Source of the DNA: an uncultured Verrucomicrobiae bacterium
Lineage (GTDB): Bacteria > Verrucomicrobiota > Verrucomicrobiia > Chthoniobacterales > UBA10450
Assembly: GCA_963756875.1 (NCBI GenBank)
Contig: CAVWPA010000001.1
Coordinates: 224,001-288,000 of the forward strand
Direction: 5' to 3'
Length of the DNA stretch: 64,000 nt
Shown: positions 14,292-56,243 of the stretch, piece by piece
Layout of the letters: the number at the start of each line of letters is the position of its first letter
Numbering within the stretch: the stretch's first letter is position 1
Translations under genes and position numbers: made by a program
Notes under the pieces: model-generated
The model's database searches: none
Seen by the model: only the letters and a program-made list of their open reading frames with translations
What the model was told of the DNA's origin: nothing

Positions 14292-14428
14292 TCCGCGTAA
14301 CGCACGCGTCTCGCGTGCTGGTTTCGGCGCCCTCGCCGAAACAGGCTTTTCTTTGGCGCGCAACCGGAGGGAAAGTTCGCGATGGCGAGACGCCATCGCC
14401 AGCACGCGAGACGCGTGCGCTACCCGGA
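14292..14428. repeat. Long REP-like inverted element (CGCACGCGTCTCGCGTGCTGG family)
   Basis: Near-perfect inverted arms plus internal hairpins; relatives at 58261-58382 and (degenerate) 46010-46146. Confidence 0.85.
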
Positions 14429-22808: not shown

Positions 22809-23891
22809 ATGGCTCGCATTGACGCATTTTTCAAATTGATGGCCGAGCAAAAGGCCTCAGATCTGCACCTTTCCACCAACAATGCGCCCATGCTGCGCAT
22901 CAACGGCGACCTGGTGCGTGTCGATTTTCCTCCGCTGAAGAACGACGATTTGAAGGCGATGGTTTACGAAATCGCGCCCGAGGGAAAGATTAAGACCTTT
23001 GAAGAGACCCTCGACGTCGACTTCGGTTACGAGATTCCCGATGTCGCCCGCTACCGCGTAAATTTCTTCCAGCAAAAATATGGCATCTCGGCCGCGTTTC
23101 GCTCGATTCCATCGCAGGTTCTTACGATTGAGGAGCTGGGTCTCCCGCCGGTCTTGAAGCGATTCGCGATGTTGAAGAAAGGACTGGTCCTGGTGACCGG
23201 TCCGACTGGATCGGGTAAATCGACGACACTCGCGGCAATGGTGGATCATTCCAACCTGCATCGTCACGATCACATCATCACTGTTGAAGACCCGATCGAA
23301 TTCGTTCATCGCAGCCAAAACTGCCTGGTCCAACATCGAGAGGTAGGCGTTCATACTCGATCTTTCGCCGCCGCGCTGCGCGGTGCATTGCGCGAAGATC
23401 CCGACATCATTCTGGTGGGCGAAATGCGCGATCTCGAAACCATCGAGCTGGCGCTTACCGCGGCGGCCACCGGTCACCTCGTTTTCGGCACTTTGCATAC
23501 GTCCAGCGCGTCTAAAGCTGTTGACCGAATTATCGACGTCTTCCCGACCAACCAGCAGAACCAGGTCCGGGCGACCCTCGCCGAATCGCTCAAGGGCGTG
23601 ATCGCGCAAAACTTGTTCAAGCGAATCGACAAACCCGGGCGCCTCGCTGCGTTGGAGATTTTAGTCGTGGACGTGGCGATCGCCAATCTCGTGCGCGAAG
23701 GAAAAACCCACCAGATCCCGGGAATGATCCAAGTCGGCAAAAAGAAGGGGAATCAACCACTCGACGATGCCATCATGGAAAACCTGCGCCACGCTCGTAT
23801 CTCGCCGGAGGAAGCTTACGACAAGGCTCTCGACCGCAAAAGGTTTCGCCAATTCCTCAAAGAGCCACCGATGGATGGCACCGATGAATAG
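22809..23891 (+). CDS. pilT: Type IV pilus retraction ATPase PilT
   Basis: ASDLHL, GPTGSGKSTT, ALREDPD, GTLHT, AIANLVRE. Confidence 0.93.
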   Translation: MARIDAFFKLMAEQKASDLHLSTNNAPMLRINGDLVRVDFPPLKNDDLKAMVYEIAPEGKIKTFEETLDVDFGYEIPDVARYRVNFFQQKYGISAAFRSIPSQVLTIEELGLPPVLKRFAMLKKGLVLVTGPTGSGKSTTLAAMVDHSNLHRHDHIITVEDPIEFVHRSQNCLVQHREVGVHTRSFAAALRGALREDPDIILVGEMRDLETIELALTAAATGHLVFGTLHTSSASKAVDRIIDVFPTNQQNQVRATLAESLKGVIAQNLFKRIDKPGRLAALEILVVDVAIANLVREGKTHQIPGMIQVGKKKGNQPLDDAIMENLRHARISPEEAYDKALDRKRFRQFLKEPPMDGTDE

Positions 23892-23900
23892 CACACTGCG

Positions 23901-25067
23901 ATGAGAATTCCTGATCTGGACAAAATCCTGTCGGCGATGCTGAAGACCTATACCGGCATCTCCGATCTGAACTTTTCCGTTGGCCACCCGCTCCAGGTTG
24001 AGGACTGGGGAGAATTGAAACCGGTTTACGTGGATCCGCCCATCGAGGCGCTCACTCCCTATCAAACGGAGCAAATCGCCCTCACGCTCATGCAGGGTAA
24101 TCGGCGCCTCATTTACGATTACCTTACCGGTGGCTCCTGCGACTGTAGTTATTCGCTCGGCGACGAAGCGCGCTTCCGCGTCAACATTTTCCGGCAGCAG
24201 GGGCATTTCTCTGCTGTTCTCCGCAAGCTGGAAGGGGAAGTGCCGTCCGTCGAAAGCCTCGGCCTGCCGCCAATTTTTCACGACATCGCCAAGGAAAAAA
24301 CCGGCTTGGTTTTGGTAACCGGGGCGACCGGCAGCGGGAAGACGACCACGCTTGCCGCGCTCCTGAACGAGATAAACCAAACCCAGCCGGTGCACATCAT
24401 TACGCTGGAGGATCCGATCGAATTTGTTCATCCAAAGCGCAAAGCCACCTTTAACCAGCGCGAGCTCGGCCACGATTTCAACAATTACCCAAACGGGTTG
24501 CGCGCAGCCCTTCGCCAGGCCCCAAAGGTCATCCTGGTGGGCGAAATGCGCGACCGGGCGACGGTAGAGATCGCCTTGATGGCGGCGGAGACCGGCCACC
24601 TTGTTTTCAGCACGCTGCACACGGTTGATGCCGGCCAGTCGATCAACCGTATCCTCGGTCTGTTTTCCCTTGGCGAAGAGCAGCAATTACGCATCCGATT
24701 GGCCGACACGCTTCGTTACGTGGTGAGCCAGCGGCTGGCTCCAAAAGTCGGCGGCGGCCGCCATTTGCTTACGGAGATTCTCGGAAACAACCTCCGCACC
24801 AAGGAAACTGTCGCCCTTGGCGAAGGCGAGCACCGGAACTTTTATGAAATCATCGAGGCGAATTCTCCATTCGGCTGGATGACTTTCGATCAATCCGTTC
24901 TCAGCGCCTACGAAAACGATCTCATCACGGAGGAAACCGCCAGGCTTTTTGCCTCCAAGAAGGGACGCATCACGCGGGGGATCGATTTGATCCAGAAGTC
25001 GCGCGGCGTCGATAATGATCTCGATTCCGGTTTGCGCCTCGATATCCCTGAAAACGCATTTCGATAA
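23901..25067 (+). CDS. PilT/PilU family ATPase (second paralog)
   Basis: GATGSGKTTT, EDPIEF, ALRQAP, STLHT. Confidence 0.88.
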   Translation: MRIPDLDKILSAMLKTYTGISDLNFSVGHPLQVEDWGELKPVYVDPPIEALTPYQTEQIALTLMQGNRRLIYDYLTGGSCDCSYSLGDEARFRVNIFRQQGHFSAVLRKLEGEVPSVESLGLPPIFHDIAKEKTGLVLVTGATGSGKTTTLAALLNEINQTQPVHIITLEDPIEFVHPKRKATFNQRELGHDFNNYPNGLRAALRQAPKVILVGEMRDRATVEIALMAAETGHLVFSTLHTVDAGQSINRILGLFSLGEEQQLRIRLADTLRYVVSQRLAPKVGGGRHLLTEILGNNLRTKETVALGEGEHRNFYEIIEANSPFGWMTFDQSVLSAYENDLITEETARLFASKKGRITRGIDLIQKSRGVDNDLDSGLRLDIPENAFR

Positions 25068-27023: not shown

Positions 27024-28422
27024 TCACGCCACGTCCCGCGCGTACCAATCCACCTTGCGCGTGACGAACATCACAACCGCGAGCACCAGGAAGAGGGCGA
27101 TCGCCCCCATCAGCAGTGCGTAATCCTGTTGCCGCAAGGTGATGTAAAGGAACGTATAAACCCCCGCCAGCCCGGCCCCGATCATCAATGTCCTTACGCC
27201 GCCGCCCAGGAAAAATCGGCAATACCATGTGATCAGGGCGGTCGACGCAATCGTCGCGATCAGATACGACCAGCTGAATCCGACAAACTCCGAGACGGAG
27301 AGAAGAAGCAGGTAAAACAGGCAAAGCGCCGCGCCAACCATCAAATATTGGAACGGGTGGATTTTTTGCCGGGCAGTGACTTCAAAAAGAAAGAAGGTGG
27401 TGAAAACCAGCACCAGGAACAGGACGCCGTACTTAATTGAGCGTTCTACATAACGGTACGCGTCCAGGATCGATAGAAACTCCGCGCCGAAACTGGAATC
27501 GCTGACCGATTTTACGTTAAAGCGCTCGTTCCCGTTGAGACTTGTCCACGACTGTGGATAGTCGCGGCCGTAATACGAGATCTTCCATTTCGCGGCAAAA
27601 CCGTCCGCGCGCACGGAGCGTTCTGCCGGCAAAAACGCGCCGCGAAATGCCGGATCGGGCCAGTTCGATTTCAGGGTCGCTTCGTTTTGCACGCCAAACG
27701 GGGCGAAAAAAGACCGCTTCACTTCCGTTGAAATCCATGGGGATGGAAAATTCCATCTCCTGAGCGATCGGCTTGTCGCCTGCCAGCGAGGCCGTTGCAC
27801 CGGTCGTGTAGCCGGGCACCTGAGAGCCAGGCAAAAAAGGGCGCTTCGTTCCATTCCAATCGAGCACCAGCGCTTCTCGTGTCCCGCGAAGATCGTTGAT
27901 TGCAATCGTTACGAACGCATCCTTCCATTGCACGTTCTTAACGTCGACCTTGAGCGCGCCGAAATCGGGCGGCGAAAATTTCCCGGAGAGCGTCACCTGC
28001 GCGCGAAAAACCGCCGCGTTGTAAATGCCGCGGTGCAGCATTTCTGTCTGAACATTTCCGTCGATGTGCAGCGTTTGCGGTAAAAAATACGCATTCGCCG
28101 TGCCCGTTTCCTCCACCTCTCGCCGTTCCATTTTCCCGTCGGGCGCCGGCATTTCCTTCACCGTTTTGAATTTGTATTGATAGGGAACGCCAAGCACCGG
28201 CCCGATCACGTTCTGTTGCCTGCCCCACGACGAGGTAATGTCGGCCACCGCTTCGTTGCGTCGCATCAGGCGATCGTTCAAGACACCGTTGATCATCGCC
28301 AATGGAATCAATAAAACTAAAATTAGTGCGCCGACCCCCAGGAGCTTGATGATCGTGCTATGTCGTTTTCCAAACGAGGGTTGCGACTTGGGCAGCGGCG
28401 GCGGAGCTTGTGTTTCGGCCAT
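27024..28422 (-). CDS. creD: Inner membrane protein CreD; +1 frameshift in T6 run at 27706-27711
   Basis: HRGIY, SNWPDPAFRGAFLP, ERSIKYG, IHPFQYLMVG, TRKVDWY across two frames. Confidence 0.9.
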
Positions 28423-32490: not shown

Positions 32491-34086
32491 TGAAAACAGC
32501 CGCTCCTCCCGCGCATTCGAGAATTCTCATCCTCGATTTCGGTTCGCAGTACACTCAGGTAATCGCGCGCCGTATTCGCGAGTTGCAGGTTTACTCTGAA
32601 ATTGTCCGTTTCGACATCCCGGCGGACGAAATCGCGGAGTTGAAGCCGAACGGCATCATCCTTTCGGGAGGCCCATCCAGCGTTTACGACAAAGGGGCAC
32701 CACATCCCGATCCGCGGATTCTTGCACTGGGTATCCCCGTGCTTGGAATCTGTTACGGCATGCAATTGATGGCGCATCATCTTGGCGGGCAAGTCGAGTA
32801 CAGCGCGCATCGGGAGGTACGGGCCGGGAATGCTGCACGTGACCGACAGCTCGGAATTGTTCGAGGGGATTGCGGACCAGCTCGATATCTGGAGCAGCCA
32901 TGGAGACAGGCTTACCAAGTTGCCGGCAGGGTTTCAAAGCGCCGGACGCACTGAAAATTCTCCTTTCGCCGCAATTGAAGACCAGAAACGGAAACTTTAC
33001 GCGTTGCAATTTCATCCCGAGGTGTCGCACACGCCGCGCGGCAAAGAGATCCTGCAGAATTTTGTCTATCACATCTGCCACTGCGCGATGGATTGGACCA
33101 TGGGTTCCTTTATTGAGGAAGCGTGCGAGCGCATTCGAAAACAAGTCGGTGATGAAAAAGTCGTCCTCGGGTTAAGCGGCGGAGTCGACTCGTCGGTGAC
33201 TGCCGCGCTTTTGCACAAGGCGATTGGCGACCAGCTCACCTGCATCTTTGTGAACAACGGTTTGTTGCGTGCCCGCGAAGAAGAGATGGTGCAACGCGTT
33301 TTCGGCGAGAATTTCCATGTGCGTCTGAAATACGTCGATGCCAGCGAGCGTTTTCTCCGCGCGCTGGAAGGTGTTACCGATCCCGAACAAAAGCGCAAAA
33401 TTATCGGCAACCAATTCATCGAGGTCTTTCAGCACGCGACCGAAGAATTGCTGGCTGAAGATCGGAAGGGCAAGGCGGGCGGACACGGCGGCTACAAATT
33501 TCTCGCGCAGGGAACGCTTTATCCGGATGTGATCGAGAGCATTTCCATTGAGGGCAACCCGTCACAGGTGATCAAAAGTCACCACAACGTCGGCGGATTG
33601 CCGGAGAAGATGCACTTCGAGCTGGTCGAACCTGTGCGACAACTGTTCAAAGACGAGGTGCGGCAACTCGGTTTGCAGCTCGGTTTACCCAGGGAAATCG
33701 TTTACCGGCAACCATTTCCCGGCCCCGGCCTTGCTGTGCGGATCCTCGGCGAAGTCACGCCCGGAAGATTATCAATCCTGCGAGAAGCCGACACCATCGT
33801 TCAAAGCGAAATGGAAGCGGCCGATTGGTATTACAAGGTCTGGCAATCATTCGCCGTGCTGCTTCCGGTGCGTTCTGTCGGTGTAATGGGCGATCAGCGC
33901 ACGTACGAGAACACGGTCGTTCTGCGCATCGTCGAAAGCCAGGATGGAATGACCGCGGACTGGGTGCGGCTCCCGTTTGAACTGCTGGCGCGTATTTCCG
34001 CGCGCGTCAGCAACGAAGTCAAAGGGGTCAACCGCGTCTGCTACGACATCTCGAGCAAACCGCCCAGCACGATCGAGTGGGAATGA
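32490..34086 (+). CDS. guaA: GMP synthase (glutamine-hydrolysing); +1 frameshift at ~32816
   Basis: [38 protein letters not shown]. Confidence 0.95.
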
Positions 34087-39941: not shown

Positions 39942-40682
39942 CTAGCGGCTTATCGACGACGAAGGTTTCGCAACTGGGGTCGCGGCGGGGTGCTGTTTGG
40001 CCGCGGACGACATCGCTGGTGCCGGCATTATGCGAGCCGTCGCGTAGAACACGTTGGACGGATAGTTGGGATAATTCGGTCTGATCGTTATCGCCCCGAA
40101 AGCCGCGCGGTTGGTGTCGTGCGGTTGGACAGTAATCAGAAACTCTCCCGAGGCGGGTCCCCGCTGTACCTTTGTCGTAAAATCCGGGTTGGAAGAGGTA
40201 ACATTGAGTTCCGTGATCGCGACCCCTTGATTCGTTTTGACCGTGATCGTCTTGGGTTTTGGTTCTTCTCCGCCCTGCCAGTAAACGAGTACCGGTTTCA
40301 TGGTGAGCAGCTGCGGAATTTCCGTTTTGAGGGTCAGAATCGTAGTAGCACTCTTGGGATCGGGATCGTCGGTTTGGACGGTAACCGTCTTCACCTGTGT
40401 GCCGTTGCGGCCGCCGATGTTGAACGTCGCGGTGATCTCGCCTTTTTCGCCAGGATCAACCTGTTTTTTTTGCGTTCGCGCCGCGGTGCAACCGCAGGAA
40501 GCGCGGACCATCTTAAAATGCAACGGCGTCTTCCCGACGTTTTCATATTTAAAGTGGGCGACGGCTTGCTTGTCGCCAATGGCCGGATGCAGATCGACGG
40601 TGGTCTGTTCCCATTTCAATTCGGCCTGCGCGGCCGCGGCAAGCAGGATCGATAACGCGAGAGGAAGAATGCAGGTTTTCAT
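39942..40682 (-). CDS. DUF1573 domain secreted protein
   Basis: Signal peptide; F.YENVG..PL...ASCGCT. Confidence 0.85.
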   Translation of the reverse strand: MKTCILPLALSILLAAAAQAELKWEQTTVDLHPAIGDKQAVAHFKYENVGKTPLHFKMVRASCGCTAARTQKKQVDPGEKGEITATFNIGGRNGTQVKTVTVQTDDPDPKSATTILTLKTEIPQLLTMKPVLVYWQGGEEPKPKTITVKTNQGVAITELNVTSSNPDFTTKVQRGPASGEFLITVQPHDTNRAAFGAITIRPNYPNYPSNVFYATARIMPAPAMSSAAKQHPAATPVAKPSSSISR

Positions 40683-41603
40683 TTTTTCGAATAGAAACGC
40701 TCAATATAATCAGCCACGGCGTCACGCCAAGTGCGGGGCGGTGTGCCAGTGAGAGATGCGAATTTTGCGGTGGAAAGGACGGAGTACACCGGGCGGCGCG
40801 CGATCCAATCTTTCATCTCGCGAAGTTTCAATGCGCCAACTTTCTTCGCTTTCAGCGGAATGCCTGACGAATGGCAACAATCGAGCGCAAATTGGGCGTA
40901 CTCCTGCCAGCTGCACTCGCCGGTATTCGCAAAATGCAGAATGCCGCGGTAATCAGCGGCGATGTTGGTAGGGACGCCGCGCTGCGGCGTCCGCGGACGG
41001 TGCTCATGGGCATTGAGAAATATCAGCAACATTTCGGCGATATCGTGCGTGTATGTAGGCGTGGAAAATTTGTCTGCGATCGCTTCGACATGCTCTTCTT
41101 TGCGCGCCCGCTCGATGATCGCGTCCACAAAGCTCGGCCGATCCGGACCAAAGACCCACGAGACGCGCACGACGAGGTGCTGCGGTCCAGCGTCCAAAAC
41201 ATTCTTTTCTCCCGCGCGTTTCGATTCGCCGTAAACATTAACCGGGTTTGCCGGATCTTCTTCCGTGTACGGTTCGCGTTTCTCGCCGTCGAAAACGTAG
41301 TCAGTACTGAAATGGATAAGCTTTGCGTTCTTTTGCGTGCAGATTTCGGCAAAGAGCTTTGGCGCTTGCGCATTAATTCGAAGAGCCTGGTCGCGTTGCG
41401 TCTCGCAGAGATCGACATTCGTAAACGCAGCGGTATTGATCAGCACGTCAAAATCGAGCGGCGAGATCCAATCGGTGATTTGTTTTTCATCGCTCAGATC
41501 GAGTTGTTCGTGATCGAAACCCAGGATCTCGAATTTATCGCGATAGGCGCGCATGAGCGCGCCGCCGAGACGGCCGCCTGCACCGATGATGACAATTTTG
41601 CAT
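40679..41603 (-). CDS. rfbD: dTDP-4-dehydrorhamnose reductase; ATG one base out of frame with KIVIIGAGGRLG
   Basis: GAGGRLG, NTAAFTNVD, HFSTDYVFDG, YGESK, RPVYSVL. Confidence 0.92.
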
Positions 41604-41608
41604 TCTTG

Positions 41609-41687
41609 TGTAGCGGCGCTCTATGAGCGGCGCATTATTCTACAAAGTGAACTTCGAGCGACCCCGAACGCTTTCGGGGCCGCTACA
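41609..41687. repeat. GTAG REP doublet containing CCCCGAACGCTTTCGGGG
   Basis: TGTAGCGGC...GCCGCTACA ends. Confidence 0.75.
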
Positions 41688-41689
41688 AG

Positions 41690-41760
41690 TCAATATCTGC
41701 CCGTGAGCTCCAGTAATCGGTTGCCACCAAGCTTCATTGTCGATGTACCACTGAACGGCT
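41690..41760 (-). pseudogene. Relic copy 2 of rfbB 3' end
   Basis: VQWYIDNEAWWQP / LLELTGRY* vs rfbB IEWYMDHPDWWQPLLERAGRY. Confidence 0.75.
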
Positions 41761-41863
41761 CGCATAGAGCGCGGGCCAGGTGGATCGACCGCTCCGCGGG
41801 CGATGCTAGATGTGGCGCCGAAGGCGCACTGCCCAACATCGAGCAAAGGACTGCTCGATCCGC

Positions 41864-42003
41864 CTAGTACCTTCCCGTTCGCTCGAGCAGCGGTTGGCCA
41901 CCAAGACTTGATGATCGATGTACGATTGAATTGTTTCCAGGAGGGCGTGCTCAAAGTTGCGCCGCGGTTTCCATTTCGGTTCGCGCAGCGCGAAAGAAGA
42001 ATC
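41864..42003 (-). pseudogene. Relic copy 1 of rfbB 3' end
   Basis: DSSFALREPKWKPRRNFEHALLETIQSYIDHQ / WW / QPLLERTGRY* vs rfbB 46151-46289. Confidence 0.85.
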
Positions 42004-42006
42004 ATT

Positions 42007-45000
42007 CTACGGGTAGGTCGCTTTGTAGAACAGTTTCGTTGGGCCAACCGCCCCCGTGTCTATAAACTGCCAATTGCCGAACGGATCGGAAGTGGTCAGA
42101 CCAATCATCCCGAAAGTGCCGGCCGTCAGATCGGGCGACGAGAGAATGCTGAAGTTTGCATTCACTACTCCTCTGCCTTCCAACTGAACGCTGCCATCGG
42201 ACAATCGCTGAATCGATGTGATGCTGAGACCGAAGCTGCCGAATTCAAAAGCGCCAATGTCAGTCATTCCGATTCGGGGATAACCGCGCTGGTCGCCGGG
42301 CGCGCCTGTTTGACCGGTGTTGATTGCGGGACTTCCCGCGAGTAATGCAAACGTTTGCGTCGGTCCTCCATTGAACGCGAGCGGGCCGAGCATTGGATCG
42401 GTGTTAATCATGTCGCCGGGCGCGGTGAGAAAACCGCCGCCGTTATCGCTGCTCAGATTGTAGCCGCCCGACACGGGCGCGCCGGAGAAGGTGTGGAGGT
42501 TGGCGTTGGTATTGTTGAAAATGTCATTATCGATGAAAATGCCTTGGCCGTAAAATGTGCTGATTCCGCCGCCGTGATTACTCGCGGTATTACCACTGAG
42601 AGTTGAACTCTCGAGGATAAGTTGGGGGGAGATGGGCGAGGAGGCGTTAGTGCCGGTAAAGACTGCGCCTCCGTTCACTGCGTTGTTCCCGCTGAACGTG
42701 CAATTGATGATGATCGCTGCAGCGGAATTTACACAAACACCGCCTCCCGCGCCGCCGCTCGCATTGTTTCCGCTAAACGTGCAATTGAAAATCTGCGACG
42801 GCTCGGCCGTGCTGCGCTCGCTGATGAGAATTCCGCCGCCGTGGCTGTTCGCCAGATTCCCCGTGATCGCGCAGTATTCAAGATCGACAACGCTTCGATC
42901 GACAAGAATTCCACCGCCAGTGTCTAAGACCATTGAACTGCCAACTTTGCCATTGGCGATGGTTAGGCCGCGAATGCTGACGAACGGACCGTTAGCCGTG
43001 CCGTTGCCGACGGTGAAAATGCGATAGTCGCCGCCGACATTTCGTCGCACCGTCAAAAGATCGGCGCCGGGACCTTGCAGGAAAATCGGCGTGGTCATCG
43101 ACGGTAGCGCGCTGTTTAAATGAATGATGCCGCTGAGAAGCGGATAGAATTTGATAAACTGATCGCCAGCTTGCGCATTCGCCGCATTGATCGCTTCGCG
43201 CAGGGAACAATCGATCGCGTCGCAAGTCCCATCGTTATGATCGTCGAGCGTGTTAACGAGCAACACCGCCCCAAATTCGAACGCGCCGATGTCCGCACCG
43301 TCGCCGCCGGATGCGTTTGGAATTTGCGGGTGGTCGTTAGGCCGCGGCTGCGACCTTTGATCGACAGTCAACCCGAACGAATTGCCGGCATCGATGGCCG
43401 GACTGCCAGTGAGTAAAGCCATCGTATCCGTCTTGCCACCGTTATCCTGGAGCGCTCCGAGATTGGGATTGATCGGGTTAGCGATTGTTCCTTTGAGATC
43501 ACTCATCGAATTGAAACCGCTGCCGAAATCGACCTTCCCGATAAAGTTGTAGCCTTGCGAAGAAAAGTTGCCGGACACATCTGGAACAGCGCTGCCGATA
43601 TTAGTGGCAACGATCGTGTTCGCGATAATTGCCGTGCCTGCAATCCGCTTGAATCCGCCGGTACTAGAACCGGGTGCGCCATTGTTAGGCAATGAACTCC
43701 CCGTTCCGCCGCTGCCGCCTGTTCCCGTATTGCCCGCGATCGTGCAGCCGGTCATGGCGAGCGAGCCATTGGTGAAGAGCCCACCGGCGTCACCGGTGCC
43801 GCCGGTGCCACCGATCCCTCCCGGATTGTTGCCCCCCGCGCCACCGGCCGCGGTGTTGTTCGCGATGGTGCAATTCGTCAGCGTCAAGGTGGCGCCGGAT
43901 TCGTTAAACACGCCGCCGCCTTCGGCCGCTCCACCATTGCCCGCCGCTGAAGTCGAACTGGGATTACGCGAACGATGGCGTTGCGCGAAAAATGAACTGC
44001 TATTTGCACCATGACCGCCGATCGCCTGGTTTCCGGCGATCGTGCAGCGATTCAACGTAAGCACGCCGCCCGTGGCGTTGTAAACGCCGGCGCCTTGAGC
44101 CGCACCGCCATTGGCCCCGCCAGTCGCTTGATCGTTTAAAAACATGCAGTCATGCACGGTGAGTGTGCCGCTGTTGAAAAGACCGGCGCCAACAGCCGAC
44201 CCTCCTGTTCCAGCATTGACGGCACCGTCGCGAATCGTCACGCCTAAGAGAAAATTAGGACTTCCGCTGAAGCTGAACACGCGCGTTTGGCCTGCGCCGC
44301 TTATGATTGTCGATCTTGCACCAAAGCCGGCGAGCGTGAGCGGATCGGTCACATTGAGAGGACCAAGCGCGGGATTCAAATCAATCGTGCCGCCAACCAG
44401 AAACAGAATCGTGTTCGCGCCGGAGATGAAGTTGGCGCGGTTGATCGCTTCGCGCAGGCTGCAATCGACGACCCCGCAAAGTCCGTCATCCGCGTCGCCG
44501 GTGGTTGTAACATTGAACTGCGGCGAACCGCTTTGGAGCACATCGGGCGCTCCTTCATACGCACCGACATCGGTGCCGTCGGTGCCCGGACCGTTGTTGA
44601 AATACGGATGATCGTAGACGCGTTGCTGTCCGCGCTGGTCGGTCGCCGCGCCGGACAAATTTTTCCCGTGATCGACGGCCGGCCCTTGCACCAAGGCGAC
44701 GGTTTGAGTCGGCCCGCCGTTATCCTTCAAGCCTGCCGGATCGAGCATCGGATCGGTAAAGAGCTGATCGGTCGGAGCAGGCCCAAAATTACTGTAGCCG
44801 TTATCAGTAAAAATATTGAAACCAGCGGACGTAACGCCCGAACTTAACGAAGAAGAGGCCAGATCGGGCGCCTTGATAATGCTGCTCCCGATCGTTGCGT
44901 TGGACGCGGCTATGGTTGAGCCAGGCTCCAGCCCGCCGAACCCAGCATCGCTGTCGTTGCCACTAAATGTGCAGTTCCGGATTGTCGTTGGACCGACAGA

Positions 45001-45861
45001 GGAAATTGCTCCGCCCTCGCCGGCTACACTAGAGCAACCATTATTTGAAGTTTGATAACCCAAGGCCCGGTTATTCACGAACGTGCTGTTGTCCACTACC
45101 AGGTCATTGCCGTCGTGATAAATTGCGCCTCCGAGCGCAGCAGAGTTACCGCTGAAAGTGCATGCACTGACGTAGAGAGATGCGGATGCAGAAACGTTGT
45201 CTTTATGATTGTTGATCGCACCGCCGACCTCAGGATCCTCGTTCGACGCATCAATACAGCCAAAGGGCAAGGAATCACCCGTGAACGTGCAGTTTGTCAC
45301 CGTCGTCGTGGCAGACGCTACGTAGCTGCCATAATCCTGAGCATACTGCTCGATCGCCCCTTTCGCGTTACCGCTAAGGGTACAGCCAATCGCCGTTAGG
45401 GTGACGCCGGAATTACCTTGTGCGTAATTAGAGATACCCATCCCGCTATTCTGGAACACACAATTCTGCACCGTCAGGTTGCCGCCATTGCTTATGCCCA
45501 GTCCTCCACTGGAAATGGTGACCCCGGAAATATTGACGGTGTATTTCGGATTGCCGATCAGGAGTGGCCCGATCCTGAAAACGAGCTGATTGGCATTCTG
45601 GGCAAAGGCAAGACTGGCCGCGCCCGGGCCGCTGATCGTCAGATCCTTGTCAATGAGCATTTGACCACTAGTCACCGTGATCGTGCCCGTGACGGAGAAA
45701 TTGATCGTGTCGCCAGATGCGGCCGCGGCGATCGTGTCGCGTAACGATCCCGCGCCGCTGTCATTCAGATTTGTGACGGTGAGGGTCGTGGCCGGGGCGC
45801 TCGAAGCGAGGGCGATTGCCCCCGCAATGGCGACCAGCCGGTGTCGGGTAGAAACGGTCAC
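42007..45861 (-). CDS. Large secreted beta-helix protein with CSLREA and choice-of-anchor Q-like repeats
   Basis: Signal peptide; DSGAGSLR, two CSLREAI, three NGG.T.T.AL...DQR...D[IV]GA[FY]E units. Confidence 0.88.
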   Translation of the reverse strand: MTVSTRHRLVAIAGAIALASSAPATTLTVTNLNDSGAGSLRDTIAAAASGDTINFSVTGTITVTSGQMLIDKDLTISGPGAASLAFAQNANQLVFRIGPLLIGNPKYTVNISGVTISSGGLGISNGGNLTVQNCVFQNSGMGISNYAQGNSGVTLTAIGCTLSGNAKGAIEQYAQDYGSYVASATTTVTNCTFTGDSLPFGCIDASNEDPEVGGAINNHKDNVSASASLYVSACTFSGNSAALGGAIYHDGNDLVVDNSTFVNNRALGYQTSNNGCSSVAGEGGAISSVGPTTIRNCTFSGNDSDAGFGGLEPGSTIAASNATIGSSIIKAPDLASSSLSSGVTSAGFNIFTDNGYSNFGPAPTDQLFTDPMLDPAGLKDNGGPTQTVALVQGPAVDHGKNLSGAATDQRGQQRVYDHPYFNNGPGTDGTDVGAYEGAPDVLQSGSPQFNVTTTGDADDGLCGVVDCSLREAINRANFISGANTILFLVGGTIDLNPALGPLNVTDPLTLAGFGARSTIISGAGQTRVFSFSGSPNFLLGVTIRDGAVNAGTGGSAVGAGLFNSGTLTVHDCMFLNDQATGGANGGAAQGAGVYNATGGVLTLNRCTIAGNQAIGGHGANSSSFFAQRHRSRNPSSTSAAGNGGAAEGGGVFNESGATLTLTNCTIANNTAAGGAGGNNPGGIGGTGGTGDAGGLFTNGSLAMTGCTIAGNTGTGGSGGTGSSLPNNGAPGSSTGGFKRIAGTAIIANTIVATNIGSAVPDVSGNFSSQGYNFIGKVDFGSGFNSMSDLKGTIANPINPNLGALQDNGGKTDTMALLTGSPAIDAGNSFGLTVDQRSQPRPNDHPQIPNASGGDGADIGAFEFGAVLLVNTLDDHNDGTCDAIDCSLREAINAANAQAGDQFIKFYPLLSGIIHLNSALPSMTTPIFLQGPGADLLTVRRNVGGDYRIFTVGNGTANGPFVSIRGLTIANGKVGSSMVLDTGGGILVDRSVVDLEYCAITGNLANSHGGGILISERSTAEPSQIFNCTFSGNNASGGAGGGVCVNSAAAIIINCTFSGNNAVNGGAVFTGTNASSPISPQLILESSTLSGNTASNHGGGISTFYGQGIFIDNDIFNNTNANLHTFSGAPVSGGYNLSSDNGGGFLTAPGDMINTDPMLGPLAFNGGPTQTFALLAGSPAINTGQTGAPGDQRGYPRIGMTDIGAFEFGSFGLSITSIQRLSDGSVQLEGRGVVNANFSILSSPDLTAGTFGMIGLTTSDPFGNWQFIDTGAVGPTKLFYKATYP

Positions 45862-46009
45862 AATTAAGAGGCCTTACCTTACCAATAACGCAGTTTGCGG
45901 ACAAGCTTTTTGCCGTGAACTCGTCCATATCTTCCCACGATCGTGGCCTAAGGGTGGGTCACGAAACTGATCAGGCTCTTGACCGGCGTGGTCGCGGCGT
46001 TGGCTGTCT

Positions 46010-46146
46010 GGGGGAGTACGCCGCCCGTCCCGGGTGTTGGAAAATGCCGGTACGACTCGGACCGTCTCGCCGAAACGATCTTTATTCTGTGAACACTTGC
46101 GAAACCGAGACGGTTTCGCCAACGCTCGAGACGAGCGTGCTCCCCG
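46010..46146. repeat. Degenerate long inverted element (GGGGAG...CTCCCC)
   Basis: Architecture similar to 14292-14428 and 58261-58382. Confidence 0.55.
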
Positions 46147-46150
46147 ATCC

Positions 46151-47141
46151 TTAGGTACCGCCCGGCGCGCTCGAGCAGTGGCTGCCACCAATCCGGGTGG
46201 TCCATGTACCACTCGATCGTTTCGGACAGGCCGTGCTCGAAATTCCGGTGCGGTTTCCATTTCAATTCGCGCTGCGCAAATGAGGAATCGATTGCGTACC
46301 GGCGATCATGCCCAAGCCGATCTTCCACGAACGAGATCAGTTTCTCGGGTTTGCCGAGTTTTTTCAGGATCATTTTCACCAGATCGAGATTCGTCAACTC
46401 GTTGCCGCCGCCGAAATTGTAAATCGCTCCCGGTTTTCCCTCGAAAAGCGCATCCACGATTCCTGCGCAGTGGTCCTCCACGTGGATCCAGTCCCGGACA
46501 TTCATCCCGTCGCCATAAACCGGCAACGGCTCGTCGCGCAGCGCCTTGATGATCATGAGCGGAATCAATTTCTCGGGAAATTGGTACGGCCCGTAATTGT
46601 TCGAGCAGCGCGTGATGACGACTTCCTGGGCGTAGGTTTTGTGGCAGGCGAGCGCCAGGAGATCGGCGCCGGCTTTGCTGGCGGAGTAGGGCGAGCTCGG
46701 GTCGAGTGGGCTTTGTTCGTTGAATTTCCCCGTTGCGCCTAACGACCCGTAAACCTCGTCCGTGGAAATTTGAATGAAGCGCTGAACGCCATGTCTTCGT
46801 GCGGCATTCAGGAGGACGCTGGTGCCGATGACGTTGGTATGGATGAAATTCTCCGGCGAATTGATGCTGCGATCGACATGCGATTCGGCCGCAAAATTGA
46901 TCGCGGCAAAAAACTGGTGCTCGACCATCAGCTCGTCGATTTGATCTACATTAGCGATGTCAGCTTTGAAAAATTCGTAGCGTTCGCCATGTTCTTCGAC
47001 CACACCATCGAGATTGGCCAGGTTGCCGGCGTAGGTAAGAATGTCGACGTTGGTGACCAAGGCCGGCTTGTAATGTTGCAGAATGTAGCGAATAAAATTG
47101 CTCCCGATGAATCCGCAGCCACCGGTCACGAGAATGCGCAC
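46151..47141 (-). CDS. rfbB: dTDP-glucose 4,6-dehydratase; extra C before the likely TAA stop
   Basis: ILVTGGCGFIGSNF, AAESHVDRS, STDEVYG, YSASK, DRLGHDRRY. Confidence 0.95.
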
Positions 47142-48765
47142 AGCGCGTACTAGCAGCGGCGGCGCAGGCGCGCTAGCGGATTTTCCCGCGCTGCGCGACC
47201 TCCTCGAAACGTGGAGGGCCGGCTTCGCCAAAACCGGCTGGACGCCGTGGCTTATCCTCGGGCTGGCGCTCTTTCTTCGTTTCTTTCTGCTCGACATCAA
47301 ACCGCTCCATTTCGACGAGGGGATCAATGGGTGGTTCGTCGATCAAATGGTCAAAAACGGGTTCTACAAATACGACCCGACCAATTACCACGGCCCGCTT
47401 CATTTCTACGTGCTCCTTATCTCGCAAACATTGTTCGGACGACACGTCTGGGCGCTGCGGCTCCCTGTGGTCCTGGTCAGCACCGGAGCCGTTTGGCTGA
47501 CAATGAAATTCGAGCCGCTCGTTGGAAGAACCGCGAGCCGGATGGCCGCACTGGCCATGGCCGTGTCGCCGGGATTCGTGTTTTACGGGCGCTATTCGAT
47601 CCACGAGGTCTGGTTGCTTCTTTTTTCGATGATGTTCATTCTCGGGCTGCTCGGCCTCTGGAAATTCGGCACGCGAGGTTATCTCTGGTACGCGGGAATG
47701 GGGTTGAGCGGGATGATTTTGTCGAAGGAGACCTATGTCATCCATGTGGGATGTGCTGCCGTCGCTGTCGGCGTTTGCTACATTTCGAACTGGTTGAAAC
47801 CGGCCGCGGACGCGCGTCCGGCGAAACAAACATGGGACTACGTCGATCTGGCAATCGTGATTGCGACGGGAATTGCGCTGATCGTGTTTTTCTACTCAGG
47901 CACGTTTTTCCACTGGAGCGGGGTAAAGGGAATCTTCAAGGCATACGCCGCGTGGTTCGAAACCGGCAAGGAAGGTCATGGGCACGAAAAGCCATGGTAC
48001 TACTGGCTGACGCTGATGGCGCCCTCATTTCATTTCAATCGGGCGGATTGCCTTGGTTACGAATTGCCCGCCCTGGCCGGCTTGGTCCTCTGCGCGTTTT
48101 GCCAGTTCTTCAAGAACCTGAGCCTGCGGTACCTCGCTATCTATGGAGTGGGGACGCTGATGGTTTATAGCTACATCAACTACAAGACGCCATGGTGCAT
48201 CATCAGCATCGTCTGGCCGTTTCTGATTATCTTTGGCGTGGCATCTCTGATTACACCGGCGGCCTATAAAAAAATCGTGCAGGGCGTGTGCGCGGCTATG
48301 TTGACCATCTCGCTCGTATCGACCATCTGGCTCAATTATTTTCATTGTACGACCGACACGGAGCCGTACGTGTATGTCCAAACGTATAACGACATCTACC
48401 GGCTAACCCGGCCCGTGCTGGCGCTCGCGCATCGCGATCCCATCTTTTATGAGCTGACCGGTTACATCATCCGCGCCAGTCCTTATCCGCTTCCATGGAT
48501 TCTCGACGATTTTCCTCGTGTCGGCTATTACGAGCACGAAAATCTCCCGCCTGATCTGGATGCGGATTTTCTGCTCGTGCAGGAAGACAAAATCAAGGAG
48601 GTCGAAGCCAAGCTGCACAGCTCCTATTACACCGAGCCGCTGCGCCTTCGAGCGTACCAGGATACGTCCAAACTTTATCTCAGCGCCCGGATCTTCAAAG
48701 GCTTCTTCCCGGGACGCGTGCCTGACTTTACCGGTCACGCAAAGGGCGGCCCGCATTCTCAATGA
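47134..48765 (+). CDS. TIGR03663/Agl23-like GT-C fold membrane protein (start uncertain)
   Basis: LHFDEG...YDPTNYHGP, SKE, GHEKPWYY, YKTPW, YVYVQT. Confidence 0.8.
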   Translation: MRTARTSSGGAGALADFPALRDLLETWRAGFAKTGWTPWLILGLALFLRFFLLDIKPLHFDEGINGWFVDQMVKNGFYKYDPTNYHGPLHFYVLLISQTLFGRHVWALRLPVVLVSTGAVWLTMKFEPLVGRTASRMAALAMAVSPGFVFYGRYSIHEVWLLLFSMMFILGLLGLWKFGTRGYLWYAGMGLSGMILSKETYVIHVGCAAVAVGVCYISNWLKPAADARPAKQTWDYVDLAIVIATGIALIVFFYSGTFFHWSGVKGIFKAYAAWFETGKEGHGHEKPWYYWLTLMAPSFHFNRADCLGYELPALAGLVLCAFCQFFKNLSLRYLAIYGVGTLMVYSYINYKTPWCIISIVWPFLIIFGVASLITPAAYKKIVQGVCAAMLTISLVSTIWLNYFHCTTDTEPYVYVQTYNDIYRLTRPVLALAHRDPIFYELTGYIIRASPYPLPWILDDFPRVGYYEHENLPPDLDADFLLVQEDKIKEVEAKLHSSYYTEPLRLRAYQDTSKLYLSARIFKGFFPGRVPDFTGHAKGGPHSQ

Positions 48766-52508: not shown

Positions 52509-52592
52509 GCTCGGGTGGTGGAATGGCAGACACGTACGTTTGAGGGGCGTATGCCGAAAGGCATGCGGGTTCAAGTCCCGCCCCGAGCACCA
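52509..52592 (+). tRNA. tRNA-Leu(GAG)
   Basis: GCTCGGG/CCCGAGC acceptor stem, anticodon loop TTGAGGG, long variable arm, GGTTCAAGTCC, encoded CCA. Confidence 0.95.
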
Positions 52593-52886
52593 CCGCCGCC
52601 GCAGCTTCGCGGCGGAAATTCCAAATTCCAAGCTCCAACCTCCAATAGGAGCGGCGGCCTGTTCCGGAGGATTTCGGCCACCGAATGGTGATTTACAGCA
52701 TCTGCGCAAACTGCAAACCCAGCCCGACGGGTCCATATCCGCAGTGGGTGATCAAACTGGTCTGTTTCCCAGAGGAAGTGCAGGATTGATTTCTTCCATA
52801 AACTGAGCGAAAAAGAGGCCCGGAGAGCCTCTCAAAACACCCAGACAAACAGCCCGAAAATATTTTATGAAAAACGACGAATTTTC

Positions 52887-52915
52887 TTGCCTTTTTCGGA
52901 CGGACTTCATACGAT
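52887..52915 (+). promoter_or_regulatory. Putative sigma70 promoter
   Basis: TTGCCT-17nt-TACGAT with AT-rich upstream tract, 26 nt before ATG. Confidence 0.55.
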
Positions 52916-52941
52916 CCGCGCCACTGGTTAAACGGGTTCTC

Positions 52942-54036
52942 ATGCGGCGCTTTCTCACGGCTTTTCTCGTACTTGCGGCTGGCATTACTGTCGCCTCCGC
53001 CCAGACCGTTACCACCGATCCGGTGGGATTCGTCACGCCGTTTACCACAATGCCGAATCAGATTAACATGCTCGCGAATTCCGACACGCTGGTTTCGGTG
53101 CCTTTCACCCGAATCCCGGCATTCACGGGCGCCATTTCATCCGTTGCAGGGAATGTGATCACCGTGTCGGGCTCGCCGGGGTGGACGACCAGTCCCCAGC
53201 AATTTGTTTACGCTCAGGGCACTCAGCCGAATCATTATTATGTGCTGATTGGGCCCAGCGGAACGGCAGATCCCAAGGAGGGCCATACCTACATGGTCAC
53301 GGCCAACGGTTCCGATACGCTCACCGTCAACACGACTGGCGATGATTTGAGCGGAATCCCGGCAAACACGCAGCTACTGATTATTCCGTACTGGACACTT
53401 GGAACTGTTTTCCCGGCCAGTGACGCTGGGGTGTCCTTCATTGCGTCGCCTAACGCCTTAAGCCGACAAACGCAGATTCTCATCCCGAACTATTCTGGAA
53501 CTGGTATCAACTTATCGGCCGCCGCCACCTATTTCTTCTCTAACGGTGTTTGGCACACAACCGCGGATCCAGGTGGAGATCATGGTGACGATATTTTGGT
53601 CACTGACGGTTATTTTATTGTCAGAAATGCCGGCACCGGTACTACCCTCACCATGCTCGGTAGCGTCCTGACCAAAAAGGAGGCGACCCCGCTGTTCACG
53701 CGCACCAGTGGTCCGCAGGACAACTTCGTTTCCGTGATCCGGCCGGTTGATGTCAGTCTCAACGATCTCGGTCTCATCAGTAGTGGCGCGTTTGCTTCGA
53801 GTCCCAACGCATTGAATCGAACCGATCAACTTTTCGTGTTTAACAACGCTGCCACTGGAATTAACAAATCTGCTGCCACGACGTACTTCTATTCTAACGG
53901 CGCTTGGCACACGACCGCAGACACTAGCGGAGACCACGGCTCGGACCTAATTAAGGCAGGGGCTGGATTTATCATCCGGAAAGCCGCTACCGGTAATGGT
54001 GCCGCGCAGTATTGGACCAATGCTCCGACCTACTAA
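52942..54036 (+). CDS. TIGR02597-like verrucomicrobial surface protein
   Basis: Signal peptide; TDPVGFV, SDT.VSVPF, IPYWTLGTVFP; internal duplication (GIN.SAA.TYF twice). Confidence 0.8.
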   Translation: MRRFLTAFLVLAAGITVASAQTVTTDPVGFVTPFTTMPNQINMLANSDTLVSVPFTRIPAFTGAISSVAGNVITVSGSPGWTTSPQQFVYAQGTQPNHYYVLIGPSGTADPKEGHTYMVTANGSDTLTVNTTGDDLSGIPANTQLLIIPYWTLGTVFPASDAGVSFIASPNALSRQTQILIPNYSGTGINLSAAATYFFSNGVWHTTADPGGDHGDDILVTDGYFIVRNAGTGTTLTMLGSVLTKKEATPLFTRTSGPQDNFVSVIRPVDVSLNDLGLISSGAFASSPNALNRTDQLFVFNNAATGINKSAATTYFYSNGAWHTTADTSGDHGSDLIKAGAGFIIRKAATGNGAAQYWTNAPTY

Positions 54037-54073
54037 ACAAATTTGCCAAAACAGAGAACTGCACATTCACAAT

Positions 54074-54697
54074 ATGAAACTCAAAGGTATCCTCGCTATC
54101 GTAACATTAGTGGTCAGCTCGCTTGCCGCTTCCGCTAGTGTAACGATCAATCTTGGCGGCGCCGAACTGTTCCAAACTGACGGCAGTACGCCGATTCCGA
54201 CTGGATCATTAATTCAGCTGGTCGCTAGCACAACAGACAATACTTTCACGTCTCCCTCACCCGCCAGCTTCACGGGCGGTTCTGCGGATGACATCGTCCT
54301 CGCGAGCTTCGGCAGTAACGATCCTGCCGGTCCGGGCAGCTTCTTGAACTCCATCACGTTCGATTTGAGCGGCAACCTTAATGCTGGAGATCAGCTACTG
54401 CTCCGGTGGTGGCCGACATTGACCACGGCTTCTTCAAGCCCCGGTTTTAGCACTCCTTTTGGACAGTTCCGCACGGATGCGGTGGGAAGCGGCTCCGACA
54501 TCGCTTGGGTTGTGCCTACCGACGGGTCGACGGTCCAACTGAACTTTTTCGATCAAGCTTTCGGCGGCACCGAGCTTAATTCCGCCGGCACGGCCAGCCT
54601 TATGACGGCAGCGGCCATTCCGGAACCTTCTTCACTCGCTTTGCTGGGGTTTGGCATGCTACTGGTTCTAACTCGCCGTCGTGCTCAAAAAAGATAA
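54074..54697 (+). CDS. PEP-CTERM protein
   Basis: Signal peptide; IPEPSSLALLG + RRR. Confidence 0.9.
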   Translation: MKLKGILAIVTLVVSSLAASASVTINLGGAELFQTDGSTPIPTGSLIQLVASTTDNTFTSPSPASFTGGSADDIVLASFGSNDPAGPGSFLNSITFDLSGNLNAGDQLLLRWWPTLTTASSSPGFSTPFGQFRTDAVGSGSDIAWVVPTDGSTVQLNFFDQAFGGTELNSAGTASLMTAAAIPEPSSLALLGFGMLLVLTRRRAQKR

Positions 54698-55352
54698 ACC
54701 AACCGTTATCTCAAGAGTCGCCGGGGCATTGCTCGGTTTTACGGCCCTGCTGATGACTGCGGCACCGGTGGGGGCGACTGTCACGATCAACTTGGAGGCG
54801 GCAGTGCTGTTCCAGAGCGATGGCACTACTGCAATTCCGATGGATTCGTTGATTCAGCTAGTAGCCAGCACAACGGATAGCGCGGTTACACTTCCGTCGA
54901 CAACAAGCTTCACCGGCGGTTCAGCCGATGATGTCATCCTTGCCAGCTTCGGAAGCAACAATGCCGGTGGACCTGGAAGTTTCCTTCAGCCCATCATCTT
55001 TAGCCTTACTGGAAACCTCAATACTGGTGACGAACTGATGTTGCGCTGGTGGCCTTCGTTGACCGTTAGCTCATCGACCCCCGGAACGGGCGCCACCTTC
55101 GGACAGTTTAGGACTGACGCCGTGGAAAACGGTTCCAACATTGCTTGGGTTGTGCCCGCCGATGGCTCGACCGTGGACCTGAATTTCAAGGACTTGGCTT
55201 TTGGCGGCACGGAACCAAATTCGGCGGGCACAGCCAGCTTCAGCACGACGGCGGTTCCAGAGACGTCCACGGTCTTGTGCGCAGGCCTTTGCGCAGTGCT
55301 TCTGCTCGCTCACGCGGCGCGCCGCCGTCTAGTCGCTGCGAAGAAAACGTAA
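54681..55352 (+). CDS. PEP-CTERM-variant protein, tandem paralog of preceding gene
   Basis: Shared SLIQLVASTTD, LRWWP, FGQFRTDAV; tail VPETST + TM + RRR. Confidence 0.85.
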   Translation: MLKKDKPTVISRVAGALLGFTALLMTAAPVGATVTINLEAAVLFQSDGTTAIPMDSLIQLVASTTDSAVTLPSTTSFTGGSADDVILASFGSNNAGGPGSFLQPIIFSLTGNLNTGDELMLRWWPSLTVSSSTPGTGATFGQFRTDAVENGSNIAWVVPADGSTVDLNFKDLAFGGTEPNSAGTASFSTTAVPETSTVLCAGLCAVLLLAHAARRRLVAAKKT

Positions 55353-55462
55353 GCCCGCTCGATTCTGGCCCCGGCGACTTTTCACGCGTTAATCTTGTAG
55401 CCTGGCCCGTTCCTGCTTGCCTGTTTTTGTGACTGCGTGATCGGCGGACCCAGAGTCAGGAT

Positions 55463-56243
55463 ATGAATATCAAAATTTCTCTCCTTGTCCTTTCTCTTGG
55501 AGCAGCGCTTGCCGGCGCGATCTTCGCCGAATCCAACATCGTCGCCGAAGACGACGCCAGCGACTCCGCTTACAAGCGGCGGCTGGGACAATAGTAAGAA
55601 TGGCGGACACGGCTTCAGTAACTGGACGCTCACCACCGACGGCAACGACAACGAACGCCATTCCGGTTTTTACATTGCCGACGTCAAAAACAACGCGGAC
55701 CTGAACAGGGTCGCAAAAAATGACAAGGCATTCGGCGTTTTTGCCAACGGTTTCGGCTTCGAACAGGCCGTTGGTTATCGTGGCTTCGAAAAACCGCTCC
55801 AGGTCGGCGATTCTTTTTCGTTCATGATGGAGAACGGAACTTTCGTGAAAAAGTTCGACCAGGATGACCCGACGCCGGGATCAATCGGCCTCACTCTCCG
55901 CAGCGGCAACGCGAATTCGTCCGTCGCCGATTACAACAAGGACGTGATCCTTGAGTTCGGTTATTACCAGGGCAAAAATAATTACCAAATCTACGATGGG
56001 ACCGAAAATGCAGATTCGGGCGTCGCTTTTGTCGATTCGGGCATTTCGGTGACCGTGACGATTACCGGCCCCGATACCTACGACCTCGAAATACAAACGA
56101 TGGGCGACAAAAAAGTGACCAAGCTTCCGGGACGGAAATTGAAAAGCAGCTCGCCCATCGAAAGCTTCGCCATCTTCGACCGCAACGGAGAAAGATACGA
56201 CGCCTTCTTCAACCAATTTCAGGTCAGCCATGAATCAAAATGA
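55463..56243 (+). CDS. Secreted hypothetical protein; +1 frameshift at ~55574
   Basis: MNIKISLLVLSLGAALAG signal, AEDDASDSAY joins SGGWDNSKNGGHGF after removing one A. Confidence 0.7.

Follow-up and report, generated by a model that had tools for sequence, protein, structure and literature searches.

Integrative islands enter genes at their 3′ end and bring a substitute for the part they displace, and the minimal mobile elements of Neisseria occupy sites between conserved gene pairs, where strain-varying genes are exchanged by recombination in the flanks. Homology-facilitated illegitimate recombination (HFIR) is well documented in laboratory transformation and has been invoked for toxin-gene arrays; it is reportedly the subject of papers by de Vries & Wackernagel (2002), Prudhomme et al. 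(2002) and Meier & Wackernagel (2003), and rhs genes are said to have been treated by Jackson et al. (2009). Clear natural footprints of HFIR in ordinary metabolic genes of uncultured bacteria have, to our knowledge, rarely been pointed out. In those sections of Kirchberger et al. (2017, PMC5361080) that deal with type VI secretion system (T6SS) effector–immunity arrays, rhs loci and contact-dependent inhibition (CDI) loci, sequential (C-terminal) displacement via HFIR is proposed as their origin. Salmonella O-antigen (rfb) clusters, in the part of Reeves et al. (2013, PMC3715488) that describes them, undergo block replacement with gene remnants at the junctions, and their map order is rmlBDAC. 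The present locus is the interval between rfbB and rfbD in an uncultured Verrucomicrobiae bacterium of the Chthoniobacterales, within a 64,000-nucleotide stretch (contig CAVWPA010000001.1, positions 224,001 to 288,000) that is referred to here as the window. A complete rfbB gene is followed there by three decayed rfbB fragments, R0, R1 and R2, the first two of which border a segment with a gene for a large CSLREA-family protein. The history towards which we lean, on a rather even balance, is a serial replacement of rfbB by diverged alleles, at least twice, plus a separate, illegitimate insertion of the CSLREA cargo.

All genes of the interval are on the minus strand, and coordinates are positions within the window (Table 1). 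In the 5′ to 3′ direction of that strand, rfbB is followed by a non-coding stretch (46154..45862), the 1284-aa open reading frame (ORF) of the CSLREA gene, about 400 nt of non-coding DNA, rfbD, a DUF1573 gene and a rhodanese gene; upstream of rfbB, and divergent from it, lie genes for two membrane proteins, one Agl23-like and one of 641 aa (P641). The interval thus holds four rfbB-derived pieces, counting the complete gene, whose order and collinearity can be read directly.

The initial annotation had reported a diverged copy of the rfbB end that starts 3 nt after the CSLREA stop, and this is confirmed. The stop codon TAG (42009..42007) is followed by AAT and then by R1, 141 nt that comprise the last 45 codons and stop of rfbB, from the DSSF codons to GRY and TAG (41866..41864). 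By blastn, R1 is 73.7% identical to the intact rfbB over 137 nt (E 1.6e-16), and a narrow nhmmer profile, made from the last 300 nt of rfbB of 22 relatives, matches it at 42005..41865 with E 3.9e-25, the best unrelated match in the window being at E 0.16. R1 is a decayed fragment, with two +1 frameshifts near the WW motif and one W-to-S change. The longest exact match between it and the intact end, read from the alignment, is 14 nt, within an overall identity of 74%. (The CSLREA ORF and R1 share a reading frame, the sequence being TAG, AAT, GAT TCT and so on; the chance of this is one in three, and there is no evidence of readthrough.) The flank that follows, X, was compared by Smith-Waterman alignment with 31 rfbB sequences and contains no rfbB piece (41862..41772; 377 of 400 shuffles reach the observed score), and it found no match when searched against the loci of the relatives. 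A hairpin had also been described after the copy. Two stems do exist there, but they fold no better than shuffles (z -1.4), and the strong hairpin follows R2 instead.

R2 was found with the same 22-relative profile at 41758..41690 (E 5.1e-13, envelope from 41771). It carries one +1 frameshift and runs directly into the native spacer and the start of rfbD, which together align with the rfbB stop, spacer and rfbD start of three relatives (L001, L002 and L006). The native spacer holds the strong hairpin (-34.3 kcal/mol, z -3.5). R2 is 85% identical to the rfbB of one relative (L009), 77% to R1 and 66% to the intact copy. (An extension of R2 to codon ~283, based on a weak tblastn match of 36% over 47 aa at E 0.001, was dropped; nhmmer gave it no support.) The sequences that follow the three gene ends, those of intact rfbB, R1 and R2, share no significant homology with one another (scores at least as high arise in 344, 23 and 162 of 500 shuffles), and only the flank of R2 aligns with native spacers.

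The third fragment, R0, lies upstream of the CSLREA gene and reads KSLISFVT, then LGHDR one frame over. An nhmmer search of the whole window with a 30-sequence profile found it at E 0.0029 (10.3 bits, profile positions 207-252), with the next match at E 0.34. Its Smith-Waterman score of 41 against the 31 rfbB sequences was reached by none of 200 mononucleotide shuffles and by none of 400 dinucleotide-preserving shuffles (null maximum 38), and the eight rfbB sequences with the best match to it do not include the intact copy of the window itself. In rfbB coordinates, only about 8-10 nt separate the end of R0 (profile position 252) from the start of R1. Because the two nearly abut, they can be taken as halves of one rfbB fragment that was split by the CSLREA segment. 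In the initial annotation, the replacement rfbB end and the cargo had arrived as one unit, in a single event. Neither part is supported: rfbB-derived sequence lies on both sides of the CSLREA gene (R0, codons ~267-281; R1, codons 285-330), so that the cargo interrupts a remnant that was already displaced, and R2, as a third and older remnant, shows at least two displacements. R0, R1 and R2 are all frameshifted fragments without an adjacent ORF. A phase-variation or silent-cassette reading of the remnants was rejected, since all are frameshifted and the gene encodes a housekeeping enzyme.

How might these pieces have come to lie in this order? The ancestral state would have been an allele rfbB(a), a spacer of 3-90 nt and rfbD, as in most relatives. 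An allele 'b', together with ~90 nt of its own 3′ flank, which is presumably X, would then have replaced the resident gene up to codon ~308, leaving the last ~22 codons as R2. Allele 'c', today's gene, with ~170 nt of flank, would in turn have replaced 'b' up to codon ~267 and left codons ~267-330 as the fragment that is now R0 and R1. In each case homology within rfbB or upstream of it may have anchored the recombination that made the left join, and the right join, inside the resident 3′ end, would have been illegitimate, as the incoming flank had no counterpart there; this combination is what is meant by HFIR. The arrangement is of the kind that HFIR would leave, with spacer A ahead of R0 and R1, X ahead of R2, and no homology between these flanks. 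Finally, the 3.93-kb CSLREA segment would have entered the dead remnant at codon ~282-285, separating R0 from R1; both of its joins would be illegitimate, ~8-10 nt having been lost and none duplicated.

Table 1. The rfbB–rfbD interval of the window, piece by piece; allele letters and the pairing of R0 with R1 follow the proposed history.
Feature	Position	Strand	Evidence
Complete rfbB/rmlB, dTDP-glucose 4,6-dehydratase, GTG to GRY codons (proposed allele 'c')	46155..47141	-	TIGR01181
Spacer A, 3′ flank of complete rfbB, two stable hairpins	45980..46154	-	fold, flank comparison
R0, decayed rfbB fragment, codons ~267-281 (proposed left half of remnant 'b')	45935..45979	-	nhmmer, Smith-Waterman
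Inserted segment, ~3.93 kb, CSLREA ORF and ends	42006..45934	-	ORF, family profiles, repeat check
R1, rfbB codons 285-330 and stop TAG (proposed right half of remnant 'b')	41864..42005	-	blastn, nhmmer
X, 92-nt flank after R1, two small stems	41772..41863	-	Smith-Waterman, fold
R2, rfbB codons ~308-330 and stop TGA (41692..41690) (proposed allele 'a', oldest remnant)	41690..41771	-	nhmmer
Native rfbB–rfbD intergenic spacer, hairpin with 12-bp stem	41604..41689	-	alignment to relatives, fold
rfbD/rmlD, dTDP-4-dehydrorhamnose reductase	40679..41603	-	TIGR01214

The kind of divergence between the copies bears on whether they were once functional alleles or spare copies. The intact copy and R1 are 74% identical, and each of them stands about as far from other species of the clade (66-77% identity). 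The initial annotation had noted that many of the differences are at third codon positions, and this bias is confirmed: over 135 aligned coding positions there are 35 differences, of which 21 concern the third position of a codon, 6 the first and 8 the second (chi-square p 0.0034). Against the relatives, R1 differs at rates of 0.21, 0.17 and 0.49 at the three positions, the rates between functional genes being 0.15, 0.09 and 0.47. A decay test was made in which a spare copy is neutral for half of the path implied by the third positions, equal neutral rates being assumed at all positions. It predicts at least 26 first- and second-position differences out of 90 for R1, of which 14 are seen (P 0.0024), and 15.7 out of 41 for R2, of which 9 are seen (P 0.02). 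The earlier proposal that the copies diverged as coding alleles is thereby supported, and a simple duplication followed by decay is disfavoured. Three derived states (K>E, E>H and N>H) are common to the intact copy and R1 and absent from 17-22 of 22 relatives, and R2 keeps the ancestral N. As far as such comparisons go, 'a', 'b' and 'c' may be read as three alleles that diverged while functional, 'b' and 'c' coming from sister lineages, with each displacement probably fairly recent relative to the divergence of the alleles. RfbB is also the best conserved protein of its neighbourhood in Udaeobacter-type loci (82-88% aa identity, versus 49-73% for its neighbours), which makes its gene the best available homology anchor.

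The segment itself consists of 73 nt of upstream sequence, the CSLREA ORF (45861..42007, 1284 aa) and 1-3 nt beyond it, in place of the few missing nucleotides of the rfbB target. The protein matches NF041518 (choice-of-anchor Q, 182 bits in three stretches), TIGR04214 (CSLREA, 64.6 bits in two stretches) and PF13229 (beta-helix, 42 bits), all above cutoff, and has an N-terminal signal peptide as judged by eye. Its best homologue is 54% identical, and 2925 homologues were found at E<=0.001 among the 8000 scored. The C-terminus, FYKATYP*, is common to the four best homologues, so the end of the ORF is native. No terminal repeats were found at the segment ends, and BLAST found neither CSLREA paralogues nor long internal repeats in the window. 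The absence of an integrase, already remarked on in the initial annotation, agrees with the family scan: none of the 48 window ORFs scanned matches an integrase or transposase family, and the segment has no mobility gene. (Seven of the 52 ORFs of at least 120 aa lay outside the scan; within 41500-47400 they include no plausible gene, the one at 41643-42047 being an ORF that overlaps R1, X and the end of the CSLREA gene.) By these profile matches, the only gene that the segment carries is one for a predicted secreted beta-helix protein of the CSLREA/choice-of-anchor-Q kind.

Relatives were collected as 80 loci from an RfbD scan, the best of which are 64-69% identical in RfbD and come from metagenome-assembled Chthoniobacterales, 'Candidatus Udaeobacter' and Verrucomicrobiota. 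The gene order P641, Agl23, rfbB, rfbD, DUF1573, rhodanese is conserved among them. rfbB and rfbD are adjacent in 34 loci, and the gap is empty in 28 of these, with a short spacer (3-90 nt where read), and filled with cargo in six. Three gaps hold a Phd/YefM–PIN pair (L007, 9258-9928; L013, 5786-6456; L048, 3631-4295) and a fourth the Phd/YefM antitoxin alone (L011, 7406-7660). L047 has a different PIN pair on the opposite strand, and L022 has a pair of the L047 type together with a dockerin protein and an S8 protease with dockerin. The cargo in relatives is mostly of the toxin–antitoxin kind, with secreted proteins only in the window and L022, and the earlier suggestion that the site mainly swaps surface genes is not supported. 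Remains of such toxin–antitoxin genes were sought in X and spacer A, with chance-level matches only. About 20 further loci have rfbD with other upstream neighbours. (In two of the loci, L019:9234-9845 and L023:9235-9846, an HNH endonuclease gene lies directly upstream of rfbD, with no rfbB within 10 kb upstream.)

On a tree of RfbB, Agl23 and RfbD with 24 rows, the seven occupied rows, the window included, need seven changes. Four of the seven, again with the window, have empty sister rows, supported at 97-100 in the Shimodaira–Hasegawa-like approximate likelihood ratio test (SH-aLRT), and the other three are in unresolved groups with empty rows. Among the Phd/YefM loci, the sister locus is empty for both L007 and L048, and L011 and L013 fall in unresolved groups with empty loci; the presence of the same pair in four lineages reflects either repeated transfer or many losses. 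The same flanks therefore enclose either nothing or unrelated cargo, in a distribution that is patchy on the tree, as is expected of an insertion hotspot, and the idea of the rfbB–rfbD gap as a recurrent insertion site gains support. A second gap in this gene row also takes cargo: in L016 (10810-14490), a 1226-aa CSLREA-family beta-helix protein, 36-44% identical to that of the window, is encoded between rfbD and DUF1573.

Could a simpler history account for the same structure? In the model of the initial annotation, rfbB was the target of a single foreign segment that brought both the CSLREA gene and a replacement rfbB end, integrated in the manner of an island that restores its target gene and displaced the native end, its integrase having been lost or never present. 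This fits the complete rfbB upstream, the displaced and diverged 3′ end right after the cargo, the coding kind of divergence and the empty sites in relatives. However, R0 sits between the new rfbB end and the cargo, R2 starts elsewhere (codon ~308, versus ~267/285), and no recombinase family was found among the ORFs scanned; nor does a longest exact match of 14 nt leave an att-like core evident, although a core could have eroded with age. We consider such an integration quite unlikely. Alternatively, the CSLREA segment may have broken a functional rfbB(b) at codon ~285, and allele 'c' may later have restored the function. The final structure would be the same, and the cargo would be tied causally to the replacement, but a deleterious intermediate is required, and the junction would have to fall by chance in the last ~20 of ~281 available codons (~7%, an estimate from the coordinates). 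By contrast, there would be nothing remarkable in an insertion that hit a remnant of ~200 nt in a dispensable stretch of ~600 nt, and disruption followed by rescue appears unlikely. It has also to be asked whether the rfbB 3′ end was duplicated in place, by slippage or unequal crossing-over, with decay of the copies and only the cargo being foreign. The derived residues shared by the intact copy and R1 (FEH, DH), which make them the closest kin of each other, and the run from ancestral-like to derived through R2, R1 and the intact gene are what tandem duplication would give. The remnants have too few first- and second-position differences for this, however, both in R1 and in R2 (P 0.0024 and 0.02 in the decay test), and no homology links the three downstream flanks; tandem duplication is therefore given a very low probability.

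An artefact of assembly, in which allelic variants or contigs of different populations were strung together, must be weighed as well. All the relatives are metagenome-assembled, and single-base insertions are present at three places in the window. At the end of rfbB, which reads TAC-C-TAA, an extra C at 46154 puts the expected TAA (46153..46151) out of frame, whereby the ORF is prolonged through R0 by 67 codons and ends at 45948; of 23 Udaeobacter-type relatives, 22 have their stop directly after ...RY (TAY-TRR), and the window's rfbB deviates from this normal end. At the start of rfbD, which reads ATG-C-AAA-ATT-GTC, an extra C at 41600 puts the ATG (41603..41601) out of frame with the KIVIIGAGG Rossmann start, upstream of which there is no ATG, GTG or TTG in frame (rfbD starts ATG-AAA/CGN-ATT... 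in 16 of 17 relatives). The third is in guaA (GMP synthase), 9 kb away, where one inserted base (GAG-G-TAC, ~32810-32818) divides the gene between two reading frames. An assembly artefact has to contend, on the other hand, with conserved synteny on both sides (P641, Agl23 and rfbB; rfbD, DUF1573 and rhodanese), and with remnants that are partial, frameshifted and only 66-77% alike, without long shared words to mislead an assembler. The order R1, X, R2, rfbD moreover puts two remnants on one side of the suspect junction. A chimeric origin of the locus would thus be extremely improbable. The three to four frameshifts in ~260 nt of remnants are, by our estimate, far too dense for assembly errors of the single-base kind.

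Serial replacement with a separate insertion of cargo, the history we lean towards, has a number of points standing against it. The single-base insertions at the rfbB stop, the rfbD start and guaA may themselves be assembly indel errors, although the one in guaA alternatively hints at a genome with fresh pseudogenes. R0 is short (45 nt, 10.3 bits) and was missed by the 22-sequence profile, both in whole-window and in spacer-only runs. The divergence test uses short fragments, and third positions are saturated (~0.47 among relatives). Along the intact rfbB there is no breakpoint or mosaic signal, the sliding comparison giving a uniform, slightly raised divergence, and trees of the left and right flanks show no conflict (approximately unbiased (AU) test, p 0.43) and lack resolution around the window; with the nearest relative at ~69% in RfbD and third positions saturated, a breakpoint inside rfbB would not be resolvable. 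No rfbB remnants were found in any of the 80 relatives' loci by tblastn with 15 RfbB queries or by nhmmer at E<=0.01, and none of the six cargo-bearing relatives has one, so that remnant-leaving events are not the usual way of filling the gap. The nearest sampled relative is only 69% identical in RfbD, and the recombination mechanism, the order of events and the origin of the alleles in other lineages are what we infer from the arrangement. An identity of ~74% between the sampled alleles is low for RecA-type anchoring, and the donors must therefore have been closer relatives than those sampled.

The flanking genes are otherwise of their expected families. The complete rfbB matches TIGR01181 at 450 bits (cutoff 365) over model positions 1-321 of 321, and rfbD matches TIGR01214 at 257 bits (cutoff 224), from an internal ATG at 41554 and over model positions 23-283 only. 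The 3′ flank of rfbB folds well (46155..46060; -36.4 kcal/mol, z -2.7, with none of 200 shuffles as good). Its hairpin region (46095-46146) resembles a sequence of another locus, not next to rfbB there (L045:66-123; 81% identity over 58 nt), and one elsewhere in the window (14386-14426; 76% over 41 nt); it may be a small dispersed hairpin element. Rfam and tRNA scans found nothing near the site, the only two tRNAs being at 31.3 kb and 52.5 kb, and in a scan for sigma-70 promoters and terminators the counts were no higher than in shuffles. Elsewhere in the window, four consecutive ORFs without a Pfam match lie at 52867-56243, just downstream of a tRNA-Leu (52509-52592); two neighbours among them, 53996-54697 and 54681-55352, are plainly paralogous, and a PEP-CTERM-like tail (IPEPSS..., by eye) ends at least the product of 53996-54697. 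A CreD-family ORF (27520-28422) covers only positions 2-215 of the 428 of its Pfam model and may be truncated or frameshifted. Two neighbouring genes for T2SSE-family (PilT/PilB-like) ATPases lie at 22809-25064. Type IV pilus motors belong to the usual DNA-uptake machinery, and the pair could bear on the route by which foreign alleles entered.

How does the locus compare with the systems described? With integrative islands it shares a target gene that is complete upstream and a displaced 3′ end downstream, but it differs in that no recombinase was found among the ORFs scanned, no att core is evident, the remnants start at different points and the cargo lies inside a remnant. As in the minimal mobile elements of Neisseria, conserved flanks (rfbB and rfbD) enclose a site that is mostly empty and otherwise holds unrelated cargo, without mobility genes. 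A two-sided homologous exchange leaves no remnant, however, whereas the remnants in the window point to one-sided events. The closest likeness is to the T6SS, rhs and CDI arrays as set out in the relevant sections of PMC5361080: the complete gene has older, displaced 3′ ends behind it, with the most recent one closest to it, there is no integrase, and the mechanism put forward combines anchoring by a conserved 5′ part with an illegitimate join further downstream. In contrast to those arrays, the gene here encodes a housekeeping sugar-nucleotide enzyme, and not a polymorphic toxin, in an uncultured soil verrucomicrobial host, and the displaced ends are dead, without an immunity gene or selectable module, and nothing suggests that they were retained by selection. 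The Salmonella rfb clusters, in the part of PMC3715488 concerned with them, are alike in being polysaccharide-precursor clusters with junction remnants in which rmlB adjoins rmlD, but the remnants described there are of wzy or of insertion sequence (IS)/H-repeat elements at cluster-internal junctions, and not stacked rmlB ends. A literature search on rmlB remnant junctions and on horizontal gene transfer in Udaeobacter found no description of this locus, which does not disprove that one exists. The locus is a known process, sequential 3′-end displacement, in a new setting, and a tidy example rather than a new principle.

What would such a site mean for its hosts? The three nested decayed gene ends would put at least two allele replacements and one gene insertion in order, and in the relatives the gap is seen to be filled and emptied repeatedly. 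It is conceivable, if on present evidence doubtful, that rfbB serves as a standing homology anchor for integrase-free exchange between divergent lineages in Udaeobacter-like soil Verrucomicrobia, each one-sided event leaving a datable fossil of the allele that it displaced. If so, the locus would be a natural record of HFIR in an abundant uncultured soil group, and also a site of repeated gain and loss of accessory genes, such as toxin–antitoxin pairs and secreted proteins. Should this be upheld with closer relatives, the rfbB–rfbD gap would be a site for gauging the frequency of DNA import without mobile-element machinery in soil Verrucomicrobia, and the distance of its sources.

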